IMG/VR virus record: IMGVR_UViG_2563366839_000003
Source: a virus
Lineage: Duplodnaviria; Heunggongvirae; Uroviricota; Caudoviricetes
Strand: one strand, 5' to 3'
Length of the DNA: 4,622 nt
Shown here: piece after piece, positions 1 through 4,622 of the stretch
Layout: every line of letters starts with the position of its first letter
Position numbering within the stretch: position 1 is the stretch's first letter
The notes under the pieces: generated by a model
Databases searched by the model: none
What the model was told of the DNA's origin: nothing
Seen by the model: the letters and a program-made list of their open reading frames with translations, nothing else
Translations under genes and position numbers: made by a program

Positions 1-1329
1 CCGGGCTATTTTCAGATAACCGCCACGCCGCATCTTGCGGTTTATGATCCGACGGTACAGTTTGAGTTCTGGTTCTCGGAAAAGCGGATTACCGATATCA
101 GGAAGGTTGAAACCACAGCGCGCTATCTTGGCACGGCGCTGTACTGGATAGCCGCCAGTATCAATATCAGGCCGGGCTATGATTATTATTTTTACGTTCG
201 CAGTGTGAACACCGTTGGCAAATCGGCATTCGTGGAGGCTGTTGGTCAGCCGAGTGATGACGCATCCGGCTATCTGGATTTTTTCAAAGGCGAGATAGGG
301 AAAACCCATCTGGCTCAGGAGCTGTGGACGCAGATTGATAACGGTCAGCTTGCGCCTGACCTGACTGAAATCAGGACGTCCATAACGGATGTCAGCAATG
401 AAATAACACAGACCGTCAATAAGAAACTGGAAGACCAGAGTGCAGCGATCCAGCAGATACAGAAGGTTCAGGTTGATACAAATAATAACCTGAACAGCAT
501 GTGGGCAGTGAAGCTGCAGCAGATGCAGGACGGACGCCTTTATATTGCGGGTATCGGTGCCGGTATTGAGAACACCCCTGACGGCATGCAGAGTCAGGTG
601 CTGCTGGCAGCAGACAGGATTGCGATGATTAATCCTGCGAATGGCAACACAAAGCCGATGTTTGTTGGTCAGGGCGATCAGATATTCATGAATGAAGTGT
701 TCCTGAAACGCCTGACGGCCCCCACCATTACCAGCGGCGGTAATCCTCCGGCATTTTCCCTGACATCAGACGGGAGACTGACGGCGAAAAATGCGGATAT
801 CAGTGGCAGTGTGAATGCGAACTCAGGAACGCTCAACAATGTCACGATTAACCAGAACTGTACGATTAAGGGCATGCTGGAGGCGACCCAGGTCAGAGGA
901 GATTTCGTTAAAGCTGTATCAAAAGCCTTCCCGAAAAAAGTCGGTACGTGGGGTAACACGGAAACACCAAACGGTACGGTTACAGTCACCATCAGCGATG
1001 ATCATAACTTTGACCGCCAGATTATTATTCCGCCCATTATTTTTAACGGTATAGCGTATGACGATCCGGGGAGCGGAAATAACCCAGGAGGCACGCGATA
1101 CACGGGTTATGGTTTTGAAGTTCGCAAAAACGGCGTATTAATCGCATCCAGAGAAACTAAAGGGGCCATTCCCGGTAGTTACAGTGCAGTTATTGATATG
1201 CCGAGTGGCAGGGGAAGCGTCACTCTGGAGTTTAAGATTTTCCAGAAAGGCAATCAGGGGGCAGGCAATATCACCGACTGTACGGTGATTGTGACCAAAA
1301 AAGCCGCTTCCGGCATCAGTATTCGTTGA
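1..1329 (+). CDS. J: Tail tip host-specificity protein J (central tail fibre), C-terminal ~443 codons; 5'-partial (continues upstream of window)
   Basis: Frame 1 is open from position 1 with no stop until TGA at 1327-1329 (the track shows only the ATG-initiated part, 205..1329). The translation ([17 protein letters not shown]...[22 protein letters not shown]...KAASGISIR) matches my recollection of the C-terminal part of lambda gpJ. Gene order J-lom-stf with ~65-70 nt spacers matches lambda. Receptor specificity cannot be read from sequence alone. Confidence 0.88.
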
Positions 1330-1350
1330 AATATTTATAACCCCAATAAA

Positions 1351-1378
1351 GGGCGTCAGGAATGACGCCTTTTTTATT
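1351..1378 (+). terminator. Rho-independent terminator downstream of J
   Basis: GC-rich inverted repeat GGCGTCA (1352-1358) / TGACGCC (1363-1369) with a 4-nt loop (GGAA), followed by a T-rich tract (ttttttatt, ~1370-1378). It starts 22 nt after the J stop. Confidence 0.75.
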
Positions 1379-1388
1379 GCAGAAAAGC

Positions 1389-1394
1389 GAGAGG
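1389..1394 (+). promoter_or_regulatory. Shine-Dalgarno-like ribosome-binding site for lom
   Basis: GAGAGG sits 5 nt upstream of the ATG at 1400. Confidence 0.6.
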
Positions 1395-1399
1395 TAATT

Positions 1400-1471
1400 A
1401 TGCGTAAAGTTTGTGCAGCCATTTTGTCCGCAGCCATCTGTCTGGCCGTATCCGGTGCGCCTGCATGGGCG
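1400..1471 (+). other. lom: Predicted Sec signal peptide of Lom (24 aa, cleavage after AWA)
   Basis: N-terminal basic residues (RK), a hydrophobic core (AAILSAAICLAV) and an A-W-A small-residue site preceding SEHQ. Confidence 0.8.
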
Positions 1472-1999
1472 TCTGAACATCAGTCCACACTGAGCGCGGG
1501 GTATCTTCATGCCCGTACGAACGCTCCCGGCAGCGATAATCTGAACGGGATTAACGTGAAATACCGTTATGAGTTTACGGACACGCTGGGGCTGATTACG
1601 TCATTCAGTTATGCCAACGCTGAAGATGAGCAAAAAACGCATTACAGCGATACCCGCTGGCATGAGGATTCCGTGCGTAACCGCTGGTTCAGCGTGATGG
1701 CGGGGCCGTCTGTGCGCGTGAATGAATGGTTCAGCGCGTATGCGATGGCGGGTGTGGCTTACAGCCGTGTTTCGACTTTCTCCGGGGATTATCTCCGCGT
1801 AACTGACAACAAGGGGAAAACGCACGACGTGCTGACCGGAAGTGATGACGGTCGCCACAGCAACACGTCTCTGGCGTGGGGGGCTGGCGTGCAGTTTAAC
1901 CCGACCGAATCCGTGGCCATTGATGTCGCTTATGAAGGCTCCGGCAGTGGCGACTGGCGCACTGACGGTTTCATCGTGGGTGTCGGTTATAAGTTCTGA
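1400..1999 (+). CDS. lom: Outer-membrane protein Lom (Ail/Lom/PagC family 8-stranded beta-barrel); lysogenic-conversion 'moron' gene
   Basis: 199-aa ORF. Typical Sec signal peptide MRKVCAAILSAAICLAVSGAPAWA with an AxA cleavage motif. Alternating amphipathic beta-strand pattern and a C-terminal ...GVGYKF ending in Phe (OMP/BAM signature). Near-identical to my recollection of lambda Lom. Located between J and stf as in lambda. Confidence 0.95.
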   Translation: MRKVCAAILSAAICLAVSGAPAWASEHQSTLSAGYLHARTNAPGSDNLNGINVKYRYEFTDTLGLITSFSYANAEDEQKTHYSDTRWHEDSVRNRWFSVMAGPSVRVNEWFSAYAMAGVAYSRVSTFSGDYLRVTDNKGKTHDVLTGSDDGRHSNTSLAWGAGVQFNPTESVAIDVAYEGSGSGDWRTDGFIVGVGYKF

Positions 2000-2025
2000 T
2001 TAGCCAGGTAACACAGTGTTATGAC

Positions 2026-2052
2026 AGCCCGCCGGTTCAGGCGGGCTTTTTT
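2026..2052 (+). terminator. Rho-independent terminator downstream of lom
   Basis: Perfect 8-bp GC-rich stem AGCCCGCC (2026-2033) / GGCGGGCT (2040-2047) with a 6-nt loop (GGTTCA), followed by a T6 tract (2047-2052). It sits 27 nt after the lom stop. Confidence 0.85.
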
Positions 2053-2054
2053 GT

Positions 2055-2058
2055 GGGG
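2055..2058 (+). promoter_or_regulatory. Shine-Dalgarno-like GGGG for stf
   Basis: GGGG lies 5 nt upstream of the ATG at 2064, immediately after the lom terminator. Confidence 0.45.
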
Positions 2059-2063
2059 TGAAT

Positions 2064-4622
2064 ATGGCAGTAAAGATTTCAGGTGTACTGAAAGACGGTG
2101 CAGGTAAACCGGTACAGAACTGTACAATCCAGCTGAAAGCAAAACGTAACAGCACCACGGTGGTGGCGAACACGGTGGCCTCAGAAAATCCGGATGAAGC
2201 CGGGCGTTACAGCATGGACGTTGAGTACGGTCAGTACAGCGTTATTCTGTTGGTGGAAGGCTTCCCGCCATCGCATGCCGGGACCATCACCGTGTATGAA
2301 GACTCACAACCGGGTACGCTGAATGATTTTCTCGGTGCCATGACGGAGGATGATGTCCGTCCGGAGGCACTGCGCCGCTTTGAACTGATGGTGGAAGAGG
2401 TGGCGCGTAACGCGTCCGCAGTGGCGCAGAACACAGCAGCCGCGAAGAAGTCAGCCAGCGATGCCGGCACATCAGCCCGTGAGGCGGCAACCCATGCGAC
2501 TGATGCTGCAGGCTCAGCACGCGCAGCCAGCACGTCAGCCGGACAGGCCGCGTCGTCGGCTCAGTCAGCGACTTCCAGCGCAGGAACGGCATCAACAAAG
2601 GCCACTGAAGCATCAAAAAGTGCTGCCGCTGCAGAGTCCTCAAAAAGCGCGGCAGCTACCAGTGCCAGTGCCGCGAAAACGTCAGAAACGAATGCTGCAG
2701 CGTCACAACAATCAGCAGCCACTTCTGCATCCACCGCGACTACGAAAGCGTCAGAAGCTGCCACCTCAGCCCGGGATGCGGCGGCTTCAAAAGAGGCGGC
2801 AAAATCATCAGAAACGAACGCATCCTCGAGCGCCAGTAGCGCAGCTTCCTCGGCAACAGCGGCAGGAAATTCCGCGAAGGCCGCAAAAACGTCTGAGACG
2901 AATGCGGATAACAGCGCACAGGCGGCAGCAGACTCACAAACTGCATCGGCAAACTCCGCGACAGCAGCCAAAAAATCAGAAACCAACGCGAAAAATAGTG
3001 AGGCAGCAGCAAAGGTCAGCGAAACCAACGCTAAAGCGTCAGAGAACAAGGCGAAAGAATATCTCGACAAGGTCGGGGGACTCGTCAGCCCGATGACGCA
3101 ATACGATTGGCCCGTTGTTACTGGTAGTGAGCCTTTTTACATAAAGATCGCGAAACTTTCCGATCCTGGAAGCAAAGATTGCCATGTAACGCTAATGGTT
3201 ACTAATGCCGGTAACTACGGCTCCCCTTACGGAAACATTGACTTTATCGAGATCTCGGCGCGCGGTCTGCCTTCTTCGCTTACTGCGGATAATGTATCCC
3301 GTTACCTGAGTATACGCCGCTTAGGGTCAACCGGGCTAGCCAATAACAGCCAGATGCGTTACGGCCTGGTTAAAGGTGATGGCTTTATTGAGGTTTGGGC
3401 ATTCCAGAGTGCGTTTATTAACGACGCAAAGGTTGCGGTGCTGGCGCAGACAACACTAAGCACAGAATTATACATCCCAGACGGATTTGTTAAGCAAACC
3501 GCCGCGCCTTCTGGATATATTGAAGGCAACGTTGTAAGGATTTACGACCAGGTAAACAAGCCGACTAAAGCAGATTTGGGTCTTTCTAATGCTATGCTTA
3601 CAGGCGCTTTCGGTCTTGGCGGTAGCGGGATATCAACAAACGGCAAGATGAGCGATGTAGAGATCTTAAAAGCTCTGCGTGACAAAGGTGGTCATTTCTG
3701 GCGCGGTGATAAGCCGACCGGAAGCACGGCGACCATTTATAGCCACGGTTCTGGTATATTCTCGCGGTGCGGCGATACGTGGTCAGCGATCAATATCGAC
3801 TACTCAACCGCGAAGATTAAGATCTATGCCGGCAACGATGCCCGGCTTAACAACGGGACTTTTAGCGTCAATGAGCTATACGGCTCGGCAAACAAGCCGT
3901 CGAAATCGGATGTTGGACTTGGCAACGTAACGAACGATGCGCAGGTAAAAAAAACCGGCGATACAATGACCGGTGACTTGACAATCAAAAAAGGTACACC
4001 GTCAGTCTTCCTGCGGGCAGACAGTGGAGTCACCGCTTTGCGGTTTTATACTGGCGATAACACAGAGCGCGGCATAATCTATGCTGGTCCTAACACTGAT
4101 TCGCTTGGCGAAGTTCGCATCAGGGCAAAGACAGCAGGGGGGACATCAGGAGGGGATCTTGTTGTTCGTCACGACGGGAGGGTTGAAGTCCGTGATCTCA
4201 CAGTAGCGTATAAAATTAAAAGCAGAACGATTGAGATTGCAAATACCGACACTGACTCATCGGCAACTACGCTAAGCATCTATGGAGTACAGCACACGCC
4301 GTTGGTTTTAACGCGTTCTGGTTCTTCTGAAAATGTGTCCATTGGGTTTAAGTTAGACAACGTGAACCCAAAGTATCTTGGAATTGATACTAATGGGGAT
4401 CTGGCTTTTGGTGAGAGTCCTGATCAGAAAAAAAACAGCAAATTGATCACGCAAGCGAAACTCGACAAGGGATTAACGATTGGTGGTCAACTGGCTTTCA
4501 AAGGTACGACAGCGTTTTCAGCCGTTGCTACGTTCAGTGCCGGGATAGCAGGAGCCATCGAGCCGGAAAACATTGACGGCCAGACGGTTAATCTTAACAA
4601 CCTGACCATCATCAAGTCAGAT
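2064..4622 (+). CDS. stf: Side tail fibre protein Stf, mosaic; 3'-partial (no stop within window, at least 853 codons)
   Basis: Hand translation from ATG 2064 in frame 0 gives MAVKISGVLKDGAGKPVQNCTIQLKAKRNSTTV...; it is open to 4622 with no stop. The N-terminal ~110 aa match my recollection of the lambda Stf N-terminal domain. An Ala/Ser/Thr-rich shaft with SETNA repeats follows, then a distal region with tail-fibre motifs (NKPTKADLGLSN, NKPSKSDVGLGNVTN, GDTMTGDLTI). Position directly after lom is as in lambda. Confidence 0.9.
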   Translation, partial: MAVKISGVLKDGAGKPVQNCTIQLKAKRNSTTVVANTVASENPDEAGRYSMDVEYGQYSVILLVEGFPPSHAGTITVYEDSQPGTLNDFLGAMTEDDVRPEALRRFELMVEEVARNASAVAQNTAAAKKSASDAGTSAREAATHATDAAGSARAASTSAGQAASSAQSATSSAGTASTKATEASKSAAAAESSKSAAATSASAAKTSETNAAASQQSAATSASTATTKASEAATSARDAAASKEAAKSSETNASSSASSAASSATAAGNSAKAAKTSETNADNSAQAAADSQTASANSATAAKKSETNAKNSEAAAKVSETNAKASENKAKEYLDKVGGLVSPMTQYDWPVVTGSEPFYIKIAKLSDPGSKDCHVTLMVTNAGNYGSPYGNIDFIEISARGLPSSLTADNVSRYLSIRRLGSTGLANNSQMRYGLVKGDGFIEVWAFQSAFINDAKVAVLAQTTLSTELYIPDGFVKQTAAPSGYIEGNVVRIYDQVNKPTKADLGLSNAMLTGAFGLGGSGISTNGKMSDVEILKALRDKGGHFWRGDKPTGSTATIYSHGSGIFSRCGDTWSAINIDYSTAKIKIYAGNDARLNNGTFSVNELYGSANKPSKSDVGLGNVTNDAQVKKTGDTMTGDLTIKKGTPSVFLRADSGVTALRFYTGDNTERGIIYAGPNTDSLGEVRIRAKTAGGTSGGDLVVRHDGRVEVRDLTVAYKIKSRTIEIANTDTDSSATTLSIYGVQHTPLVLTRSGSSENVSIGFKLDNVNPKYLGIDTNGDLAFGESPDQKKNSKLITQAKLDKGLTIGGQLAFKGTTAFSAVATFSAGIAGAIEPENIDGQTVNLNNLTIIKSD
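2676..3032 (+). repeat. stf: Five intragenic copies of a ~21-nt unit encoding K-[TSKV]-S-E-T-N-A within the Ala/Ser-rich Stf shaft
   Basis: Copies at 2676-2696 (aaaacgtcagaaacgaatgct), 2802-2822 (aaatcatcagaaacgaacgca), 2885-2905 (aaaacgtctgagacgaatgcg), 2970-2990 (aaaaaatcagaaaccaacgcg) and 3011-3032 (aaaggtcagcgaaaccaacgct). They encode KTSETNA, KSSETNA, KTSETNA, KKSETNA and KVSETNA, set in an A/S/T-rich low-complexity context. Confidence 0.8.
3555..3940 (+). repeat. stf: Two copies of a tail-fibre sequence motif N-K-P-[TS]-K-[AS]-D-[LV]-G-L-[SG]-N, ~112 codons apart, in distal Stf
   Basis: Copy 1 at 3555-3590 (aacaagccgactaaagcagatttgggtctttctaat = NKPTKADLGLSN). Copy 2 at 3891-3940 (aacaagccgtcgaaatcggatgttggacttggcaacgtaacgaac = NKPSKSDVGLGNVTN). 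Both are preceded by an aromatic/hydrophobic pair plus Q/S (IYDQV / LYGSA). Confidence 0.7.

Follow-up and report, generated by a model that had tools for sequence, protein, structure and literature searches.

The window, by which we mean the whole 4,622-nucleotide stretch of DNA that was analysed, carries the 3' part of a J gene, a lom gene and the beginning of a stf gene, in the order J-lom-stf that is also seen in lambda and in the relatives of the window. The features on the strand given are the following.

1..1329, plus strand: 3' part of J, the central tail fibre or host specificity protein (from the translation and the J annotation in relatives)
1400..1999, plus strand: lom, Ail/Lom outer-membrane beta-barrel protein (ORF of 199 aa)
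2026..2047, plus strand: terminator-like element, a GC-rich hairpin and then a T run, in the gap between lom and stf (consensus scan)
2064..2465, plus strand: Stf aa 1-134, N-terminal 'collar' domain, the tail anchor (PF08400)
2466..2903, plus strand: Stf aa 135-280, lambda-like Ala/Ser/Thr-rich shaft, corresponding to lambda's proximal coiled coil (lambda identity)
2904..3056, plus strand: Stf aa 281-331, further shaft resembling S74-type Stf proteins such as that of mEp460, not lambda-like (mEp460 identity)
3057..4622, plus strand: Stf in mid-fibre, aa 332-853, the greater part of an internal, beta-rich cassette that extends to about aa 898 in full-length relatives (phrog_24369)

The last 147 aa of J are of the phage 434 type and not of the lambda type, and by tblastn the segment 886-1329 is 96.6% identical to J of phage 434 and 100% identical to J of mEp332, PhiR34_1 and others. 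Identical copies of the window's lom score with PF06316 (Ail_Lom), and lom is approximately 100% identical at the nucleotide level among prophages that differ in their J and stf alleles. In a protein look-up, none of the contigs with a Lom identical to that of the window had an identical stf, and the part of Stf beyond the window (406 aa) was therefore deduced from relatives that are 97-99.6% identical in nucleotide sequence over the window's distal part. The hairpin between lom and stf corresponds in position to a terminator annotated in phage Ayreon.

The stf frame starts at 2064 and runs for 853 uninterrupted codons to 4622, where it is still open, as the initial annotation had stated; the two sequences quoted there, ...ETNAKASENKAKEYLDKVGG and then DWPVVTGSEPFYIKIAKLSDPGSKDCHVTLMVTNAGNYGSPYGNIDFIEISARG, are both present in the translation. 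The window ORF belongs to a prophage side tail fibre (Stf) of the lambda type and covers its first two-thirds. The nearest relative, from a prophage of E. coli 300081 (here L014), is one uninterrupted ORF of 1,259 aa that differs from the window in 7 residues, with identity running to the last codon (99.2% for the 853 aa as a whole); a further eight S74-type relatives, of 1,252-1,260 aa, are uninterrupted too. The expectation of a protein longer than lambda Stf, which has about 774 aa, was thus borne out. Another reading would make the region two genes or a decayed gene, with an N-terminal pseudogene followed by a separate S74 peptidase that begins at Met343. PGAP splits one relative (L001) and many other genomes in this manner ('pyocin knob domain-containing S74 family peptidase'), and many database proteins of about 909 aa begin MTQYDWP. 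We find this reading most improbable and reject it, since the frame is intact both in the window and in nine relatives, the annotations of L014, Ayreon, mEp460 and vB_EcoS-640R1 give one CDS for the gene, and no promoter-like site was found in 1300-4622. The latter result, together with the absence of Rfam families from the window, means that nothing points to an RNA element or to an internal start at the junction.

The initial annotation had also suggested that a tfa chaperone gene might be found downstream. This did not hold for the relatives, which end in an S74 domain and are followed by a mere remnant of tfa. In L001 the domain (PF13884, Peptidase_S74) is found at aa 1115-1166 with E=3.4e-13 and 50 bits against a cut-off of 22, and the Ayreon Stf has it too, as do the stf genes located after identical copies of lom. 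The relatives have the Ser...Lys motif S-D-x-x-x-K, as SSDRRLK in L014 (S1116-K1121) and SSDRDLK in L001, which we take to be the cleavage site from work on endosialidase and T5 pb1. By comparison with lambda Tfa, a remnant of 45-48 aa of the Tfa C-terminus lies 37 nt past the stop codon in 8 of 8 S74-type relatives, and in L014, which was outside this set of eight, tfa fragments are annotated as pseudogenes.

The N-terminal part conforms to the lambda protein. The PF08400 (phage_tail_N) match covers the full length of the family at aa 1-134 with E=6.6e-72 and 240 bits against a cut-off of 26.6, and a close relative matches the solved N-terminal chain of lambda Stf (9e7m) over aa 1-94 with E=3e-51. 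The collar that StfN makes sits at the junction of gpV and gpM, and the proximal coiled coil is built from lambda residues 102-393 (PMC12617516); the coiled-coil geometry of the present shaft is taken from that work. Ala, Ser and Thr make up 75% of aa 135-280, and an NCBIfam scan gave a single spurious SMC match on this low-complexity shaft. A lambda-Stf-like N-terminus and shaft had been recognised previously, and this is confirmed by 86% identity to lambda orf-401 over aa 1-284. The lambda-homologous shaft ends at aa 280-284 (nt ~2903-2915), and the next ~50 aa are shaft that is not lambda-like; in nucleotide alignments with lambda and with a Tfa-type Stf (L008), similarity breaks after ...ACGTCTGAGACGAAT at about 2903, and in the region of aa 281-331 these two are just 32-49% identical to the window. 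The boundary that had been placed near 3060 is consequently about 150 nt downstream of the end of lambda homology, but it coincides with a second breakpoint, since the identity to the mEp460 Stf (~97% over aa 1-331) stops at aa 331, nt ~3056. The homology to mEp460 resumes at aa 899-1259 of the full-length relative with 79% identity, while the middle in between is unrelated. No tandem repeats were found in the shaft DNA at 2300-3200.

The later part of the ORF has no similarity to lambda orf-314 (best E=1.5), in agreement with the earlier impression, so that this Stf does not have the lambda-type distal region; to judge from its relatives, a separate Tfa gene is not to be expected either. Homology thus upholds the proposal of a mosaic fibre in which a lambda-type N-terminus and shaft are joined to unrelated sequence. 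The middle of the protein was swapped in from another fibre family, and the patchwork is real, although common and catalogued in E. coli. The same annotation held that full-length collinear identity to a single well-characterised Stf would make the gene ordinary instead of mosaic; this applies in part, as the whole ORF is collinear at 99.2% aa identity with the RefSeq protein L014, which is however known from annotation and not from experiment.

The stretch 3040-4622 was initially taken for the fibre tip, that is, a horizontally acquired receptor-binding module that sets adsorption specificity. It is indeed exchanged relative to lambda, L008 and mEp460, and pairwise identity among the relatives is lowest in aa 631-870 (0.68-0.79), which lies inside the cassette and not in the tip before the chaperone, so that the cassette could also carry specificity. 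We nevertheless regard the interpretation as a tip as unlikely. The stretch is most of an internal cassette (aa 332-898) with mEp460-shared sequence on both sides, and 406 residues are still to follow. Because mEp460 shares aa 1-331 and 899-1259 but not the middle, 3057-4622 is internal; its Stf has the tip and S74 region in common at 79% and yet lacks the cassette. Conversely, the relative P0046 is 79% identical over L014 aa 459-1045, much of the cassette region, and combines this with another C-terminal end; P0046 lacks an S74 domain and contains repeats that are related to a Tfa-dependent Stf.

The homologues point in the same direction. The cassette matches the tail fibre family phrog_24369 with E=1.5e-211 at profile positions 208-715 of 1396, and aa ~334-853 are 37-55% identical to the middles of Klebsiella phage fibres of 1,300-1,400 aa; homologues occupy aa ~240-800 of fibres of 1,300 aa, which does not fit a tip. 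In KP15 the homologous stretch is at aa 241-779, in the middle of a 1,328-aa fibre at the gp37 position, upstream of a separate gp38 adhesin gene, and in a siphovirus fibre of 1,314 aa it is at about aa 291-797. Most of the long cluster representatives also have it mid-protein. The receptor-binding tip is likely to be located beyond the window end.

The cassette can be divided into the following parts, which are approximate and meant at domain level only, since the AF2 model used is a monomer with a mean pLDDT of 67 (38 sequences including the Klebsiella relatives); a model from a shallow alignment (26 sequences, 65-97% identical) had a mean pLDDT of 49 and was discarded.

3099..3539, plus strand: sub-domain A (aa ~346-492), beta-sandwich domain
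3654..3875, plus strand: sub-domain B (aa ~531-604), small alpha/beta knob-like domain (AF2 block pLDDT 53-86)
3873..3998, plus strand: conserved connector motif (aa 604-645: ...KPSKSDVGLGNVTNDAQVKKTGDTMTGDL...), common to many unrelated fibre genes
4011..4223, plus strand: sub-domain C (aa ~650-720), beta-repeat like the shaft of the proximal long tail fibre, gp34-type (profile match)
4224..4622, plus strand: aa ~721-853, shaft of variable sequence, truncated by the end of the window (low identity; AF2 block pLDDT 38-65)

Sub-domain B has a profile match to residues 552-636 of a 'Putative tail fiber' chain (7z47_D, E=1e-4), and aa ~511-612 are shared at 38-41% identity with L-shaped fibre genes of T5-like phages. 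The connector motif is nearly invariant in the family alignment and matches the T4-type distal long-tail-fibre families phrog_16472 and phrog_5667; in dozens of cluster representatives the match is confined to query residues ~263-330. Sub-domain C matches residues 948-1020 of the 'Long tail fiber proximal subunit' 9f4a_Le (E=3e-9), with an AF2 block pLDDT of 80-91 across most of it. In fold searches with the AF2 model the best Foldseek match was KP27 Gp37 (E=2e-30), and the strong matches in BFVD are all tail fibres or tailspikes. The best relatives of known structure are shaft and joint pieces, which also argues against a tip and suggests that the stretch mainly supplies length, joints and knobs. 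The fold matches also include N-terminal parts of tailspikes and T4 gp9. Together with the variable aa 631-870 these raise the idea that the cassette binds a receptor itself, as a second site on the side of the fibre, or serves as a platform on which another receptor-binding protein docks. We give this little credence; if true, it would mean that a lambdoid phage carries a side fibre that is branched or of dual specificity, for which the dual-domain 'T-shaped' fibres of T5-like phages in the BASEL collection (PMC11990801) offer a comparison.

The drop in GC content after the shaft had been put forward as the mark of horizontal exchange. The drop is real, at 8.5 points (57.5% in aa 135-333 and 49.0% in aa 334-853; z=3.5), but does not reach the mid-40s as estimated by eye; the lowest 200-nt value, 41.5%, is reached only in 4201-4400. 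Both values would fit a recent import of DNA from a donor of lower GC content that lies outside the usual range of hosts. However, GC3 runs opposite to the drop, with 0.46 in the shaft and 0.50 in the part that follows (z=-1.0), while GC2 is 0.74 in the shaft versus 0.46 after it. The amino acid composition alone predicts a GC fraction of 0.625 for aa 135-280 and 0.501 for aa 334-853, and thereby reproduces the drop that is observed (0.598 and 0.490). The rare codons noted earlier are present, in that ATA, AGG, AGA, CTA, CGA and CGG together account for 19 of 520 codons after the junction versus 1 of 333 before it, but they are not a signature of foreign DNA. The shaft has no Ile codons, no Leu codons and only three Arg codons, so rare codons of this kind are impossible there, and the rare share of Ile, Arg, Leu and Gly codons in the distal part (44/157) is like that of the adjacent J gene (29/120; Fisher p=0.49). 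In addition, nearly all of the phage relatives found have hosts among the Enterobacteriaceae, for the most part Klebsiella, Escherichia and Salmonella. Foreign low-GC DNA is accordingly rejected as scarcely credible, and the shift in GC and rare codons is an amino acid effect, a by-product of the Ala/Ser/Thr shaft.

Taken together, the window probably covers codons 1-853 of the roughly 1,259 in a lambdoid prophage Stf built of at least four blocks, with the cassette in mid-fibre and an S74 end. The first block is the lambda-type collar and coiled-coil shaft, to aa 280, and the second the short shaft of aa 281-331 typical of S74-ended Stf proteins. The third is the beta-rich cassette in the interior (aa 332-898, about 567 aa), whose homologues are the mid-shafts of 'L-shaped' or long Klebsiella phage fibres and inside which the window ends, and the fourth, outside the window, would be the tip region with the C-terminal S74 intramolecular chaperone domain. 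By analogy with its homologues, Stf would trimerise, and the S74 domain would nucleate folding and then cleave itself off at Ser-Asp-x-x-x-Lys (residues S1116 to K1121 of L014). The collar domain may clamp the fibre onto the tail, and the exposed tip may be the first part to touch the cell surface, in a reversible contact with what is probably LPS or O-antigen; adsorption would thereby be faster, and the 434-type J tip would then engage a receptor of its own. The exchange of blocks is probably ordinary homologous shuffling in the repetitive shaft and at conserved fibre motifs.

The Stf of the window is ordinary and already catalogued, and its value as a discovery is small, as mosaic Stf proteins of lambdoid prophages are well known and the allele is in RefSeq at 99% and in hundreds of E. 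coli genomes. The case has some general implications. Shifts in GC and rare codons beside low-complexity Ala/Ser/Thr shafts should not be taken as evidence of horizontal transfer, and the splitting of an intact gene in RefSeq into a pseudogene and an 'S74 peptidase' can mislead the prediction of prophage host range.

With respect to known systems, lambda Stf (orf-401/orf-314; UniProt P03764) has the same locus after J-lom, the same PF08400 collar and 86% identity over aa 1-284, a range that takes in the first ~180 residues of the coiled-coil shaft. It is unlike the window's Stf (~1,259 aa) past aa ~284, and it uses a separate Tfa, whereas the relatives of the window have a C-terminal S74 chaperone and a tfa remnant only. 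The whole window ORF is collinear with the Stf of the E. coli 300081 prophage (WP_446851291.1; 99.2% aa), of Ayreon (ATP61598.1; 81%) and of vB_EcoS-640R1 (URC10088.1; 84%), all three with the J-lom-stf arrangement of the window, but Ayreon and 640R1 have diverged alleles at aa ~510-853. The module is present over at least 80% of the query in 242 of 5,426 complete E. coli genomes, and it occurs in these two phages as well. The mEp460 Stf (AFM76057.1) is alike at aa 1-331 (96-97%) and in the tip and S74 region, aa 899-1259 (79%), with an unrelated middle of ~505 aa in place of the aa 332-898 cassette of the window's relative. The Klebsiella 'L-shaped' and long fibres (gp37 position in KP15 and KP27, vB_Kpl_K50, T5-like Roth49) align with the cassette in their middles, but have other N-terminal attachment regions and belong to myovirus, T5-like and other siphovirus virions. 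T5 pb1 and the phage endosialidase chaperone (PF13884) follow the same logic, in which a long trimeric fibre has its binding tip immediately before a C-terminal S74 domain that is expected to be a self-cleaving folding chaperone; collinear similarity to T5-type pb1 was not found, and the tip of the present fibre family has no significant sequence match to the solved pb1 tip. The fibre of phage K1F is an endosialidase that bears an S74 domain. A chimera of the N-terminus of lambda Stf and the tail fibre of K1F is functional (PMC11338833), and the natural junctions described here, the breakpoints at aa 280 and aa 331 and the return of mEp460 homology at about aa 899, could help in the design of lambda Stf chimeras like those already employed to deliver DNA (PMC11338833).

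The side tail fibre gene stf in the window is mosaic, and this structure, proposed in the initial annotation, is confirmed by the breakpoints found on comparison with lambda, with a prophage copy that has a Tfa-type Stf (L008) and with phage mEp460, and not by base composition. The gene stands in the order J-lom-stf, which is common to lambda and hundreds of lambdoid prophages, and the following features were located:

1-1329, plus strand: 3' end of gene J, from translation.
1400-1999, plus strand: lom, an ORF.
2026-2047: strong terminator-like hairpin between lom and stf, 8 pairs (7 G-C) and then a T run, with the start codon of stf 17 nt further on.
2064-4622, plus strand: stf ORF from the ORF scan, with ATG at 2064 and open at 4622 after 853 codons.

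The peptide strings quoted initially were found in this ORF where they had been placed. A terminator is annotated in phage Ayreon at the place equivalent to the hairpin, no promoter-like sites were found in 1300-4622, and no Rfam families were matched anywhere in the window; stf expression is presumably dependent on antiterminated late transcription.

PF08400, the N-terminal domain of prophage tail fibres, is matched over its full length by residues 1-134 (E=7e-72), and the first 94 residues of a close relative match 9e7m, the collar domain of lambda Stf as solved. Lambda orf-401, one of the two ORFs covering lambda Stf, has 86% identity over aa 1-284 and is unrelated beyond, and the other, orf-314, shows no similarity, in line with the earlier statement that the later part is unlike the lambda Stf distal region. 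The boundary originally drawn, at about nt 3060, coincides with the breakpoint against mEp460, whose Stf keeps 96.7% identity as far as aa 331 (nt ~3056) and is divergent from there on, but similarity to lambda and L008 has already ended by then, the nucleotide alignment to both breaking after ...ACGTCTGAGACGAAT, at ~nt 2903. Since the similarity of other phages is lost at ~2413, 2485, 2902 or 3037, there are several recurrent junctions, in the shaft and close to where the N-terminal domain ends. Identity to most close relatives is 86-96% in 3091-3500 and ~100% in 3500-4622, and in other relatives it goes down to 48-83% in 3791-4500; judging by these values, there is further patchwork inside the later part of stf.

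The fall in GC that had been taken as a mark of foreign DNA is real in the raw values, from 57.5% (aa 135-333) to 49.0% (aa 334-853; z=3.5), but it reaches ~49% and not the mid-40s, with only one 200-nt window (4201-4400) as low as 41.5%. GC2 is 0.74 in the shaft versus 0.46 after it, whereas GC3 is 0.46 versus 0.50 (z=-1.0), which is opposite in direction to total GC, and GC3 shows no difference when aa 1-333 taken whole are compared with aa 334-853 (z=0.4). The shaft consists of 75% Ala+Ser+Thr, essentially without hydrophobic residues, and when pooled synonymous usage is applied to the amino-acid composition the expected GC of aa 135-280 is 0.625 (observed 0.598) and that of aa 334-853 is 0.501 (observed 0.490). 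Because the signal vanishes by codon position and the amino-acid prediction reproduces the drop, the shift is a consequence of protein composition and not of foreign DNA. The rare codons, also cited in support of a foreign origin, "appear" past the junction because the shaft has 0 Ile, 0 Leu and only 3 Arg codons; their share of Ile+Arg+Leu+Gly codons in the distal part (44/157) is like that in the neighbouring J (29/120; Fisher p=0.49).

The stretch first regarded as the fibre tip is not at the tip, since several lines of evidence put 3057-4622 mid-fibre. The mEp460 Stf has aa 1-331 (96%) and aa 899-1259 (79%) in common with the full-length relative, and because it matches both flanks and not the unrelated middle, aa 332-898 (numbered on that relative) form an internal cassette in which the window ends. 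The related database protein P0046 matches at 79% over aa 459-1045 of E. coli 300081 (L014, the nearest relative; WP_446851291.1), much of the cassette region; it is without an S74 domain, and its repeats are related to a Tfa-dependent Stf. Cassette homologues (37-55% identity) sit centrally in long fibres, as in Klebsiella myovirus KP15 (aa 241-779 of a fibre of 1,328 aa at the gp37 position, with a separate gp38 adhesin gene next) and in a Klebsiella siphovirus (around aa 291-797 of 1,314 aa), and a T5-like phage of Klebsiella has one more. Among 1.84 billion cluster representatives searched there were 143 matches, 24 of them at E<=1e-30; the matched stretch is internal in most long matches, and many cover only sub-blocks of the query. 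The family profile matched 9f4a, a proximal long-tail-fibre subunit (E=3e-9, window aa ~650-720), and 7z47, a chain labelled 'Putative tail fiber' (window aa ~510-595, E=1e-4). The AF2 model, a monomer with mean pLDDT 67, predicts:

aa ~346-492: beta-sandwich domain.
aa ~531-604: small alpha/beta knob.
aa ~633-723: beta-repeat, confident.

Since aa 631-870 is the most variable segment among 74 close relatives (mean pairwise identity 0.68-0.79, versus 0.82-0.86 in the less variable pre-chaperone tip), the cassette may be involved in specificity. A segment of ~125 nt (window 4487-4613) has 92-93% identity to genes labelled 'tail fiber protein' on E. coli plasmids of 80-93 kb, a hint that short pieces of fibre genes are exchanged with phage-like elements carried on plasmids.

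The complete protein is seen in relatives, among which there was no contig identical to the window. In L014 it is a single annotated CDS of 1,259 aa, with 7 of 853 residues differing from the window ORF, and 8 further relatives have uninterrupted ORFs of 1,252-1,260 aa. Past the window edge, their C-terminal end is a Peptidase_S74 intramolecular-chaperone domain, with a PF13884 match above the curated cut-off at aa 1115-1166 in the prophage-bearing contig L001 (E=3e-13) and an S-D-x-x-x-K motif in L014 (S1116...K1121). A gene for Tfa, the separate assembly chaperone of lambda-type fibres, had been expected downstream, but intact tfa is absent in 8/8 S74-type relatives checked against lambda Tfa (L001, L002, L004-L006, L009-L011; L014 is outside that set). 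All eight carry only a remnant of the Tfa C-terminus, 37 nt past the stf stop (10877-11020 in L001), with 76-83% identity to aa 147-191/194 of lambda Tfa, and PGAP labels such fragments tfa pseudogenes in L001 and L014. We read the remnant as the right-hand recombination scar, where a self-chaperoned end would have replaced the Tfa-dependent distal end. PGAP also splits the uninterrupted 1,258-aa stf ORF in L001:7064-10840, and in many RefSeq E. coli genomes, into an N-terminal 'pseudogene' and a 'pyocin knob domain-containing S74 family peptidase' from internal Met343; stf is a single CDS in Ayreon and mEp460 as in L014, and the split looks like an annotation artefact. In contig L007 an otherwise 97%-identical stf copy (8665 onward) has a stop at codon 970 and no gene called, and is probably decayed. 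GtrA-family and glycosyltransferase family 2 genes (yfdG, yfdH) lie ~2 kb downstream of stf in L014 (9741-11017).

The nucleotide match to lambda J ends at 885, and the last 147 aa of J (window 886-1329) have 96.6% identity to phage 434 J and 100% to J of mEp332, PhiR34_1 and ev243; we take the target of the 434-type tip to be probably OmpC rather than LamB. Prophages L004-L011 have a ~100% identical lom but nothing that matches window 933-1290 at nucleotide level, and the central fibre tip is therefore swapped independently of stf. Across prophages with differing J tips and differing stf alleles, lom (window 1391-2000) has ~100% nucleotide identity and is, on these alignments, a conserved island with an exchangeable receptor-binding module on either side.

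In Ur-lambda the collar at the gpV-gpM junction is built from 12 StfN domains and feeds four trimeric fibres, and the proximal coiled coil is made up of lambda Stf residues 102-393 (PMC12617516). The window protein retains, by homology, this collar and coiled coil; past the latter, the lambda hinge and distal end would be replaced by a long beta-structured shaft, with the tip, beyond the window, capped by the S74 domain. In T5 pb1 and in endosialidases, among which we count the S74-bearing K1F fibre, the S74 domain promotes trimer folding and then cuts itself away, and by analogy it would here drive trimer folding and self-cleave off. From this architecture we infer that the tip, being exposed, would be the first part to make contact, reversibly and with a partner that is plausibly LPS or O-antigen, and that the J tip would thereafter bind its own receptor. 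Such hybrids work, since experiment has shown function for a fusion of the lambda Stf N-terminus to the tail fibre of phage K1F (PMC11338833), and 126 lambda-Stf chimeras, some from prophage fibres, were screened as libraries with fusion points set at homology stretches to lambda Stf (bioRxiv 10.1101/2025.02.28.640725).

Of 5,426 complete E. coli genomes, 242 carry the module over 80% or more of the query and 445 carry at least part of it; it is also found in the isolated phages Ayreon and vB_EcoS-640R1, and has a PHROGs entry, tail fibre family phrog_24369. The window stf thus encodes a mosaic fibre of an ordinary kind that has already been catalogued. Recombination between lambdoid tail fibre genes and their counterparts in prophages is reportedly a documented process. 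Orthology to T5 pb1 was rejected, as similarity to the fibre genes of T5-like phages is limited to aa ~511-612 (~40%). The window protein is like the lambda-type Stf family in collar domain, locus and proximal shaft but differs from it in the distal Tfa feature, and its relatives group it with the S74 self-chaperoned fibres.
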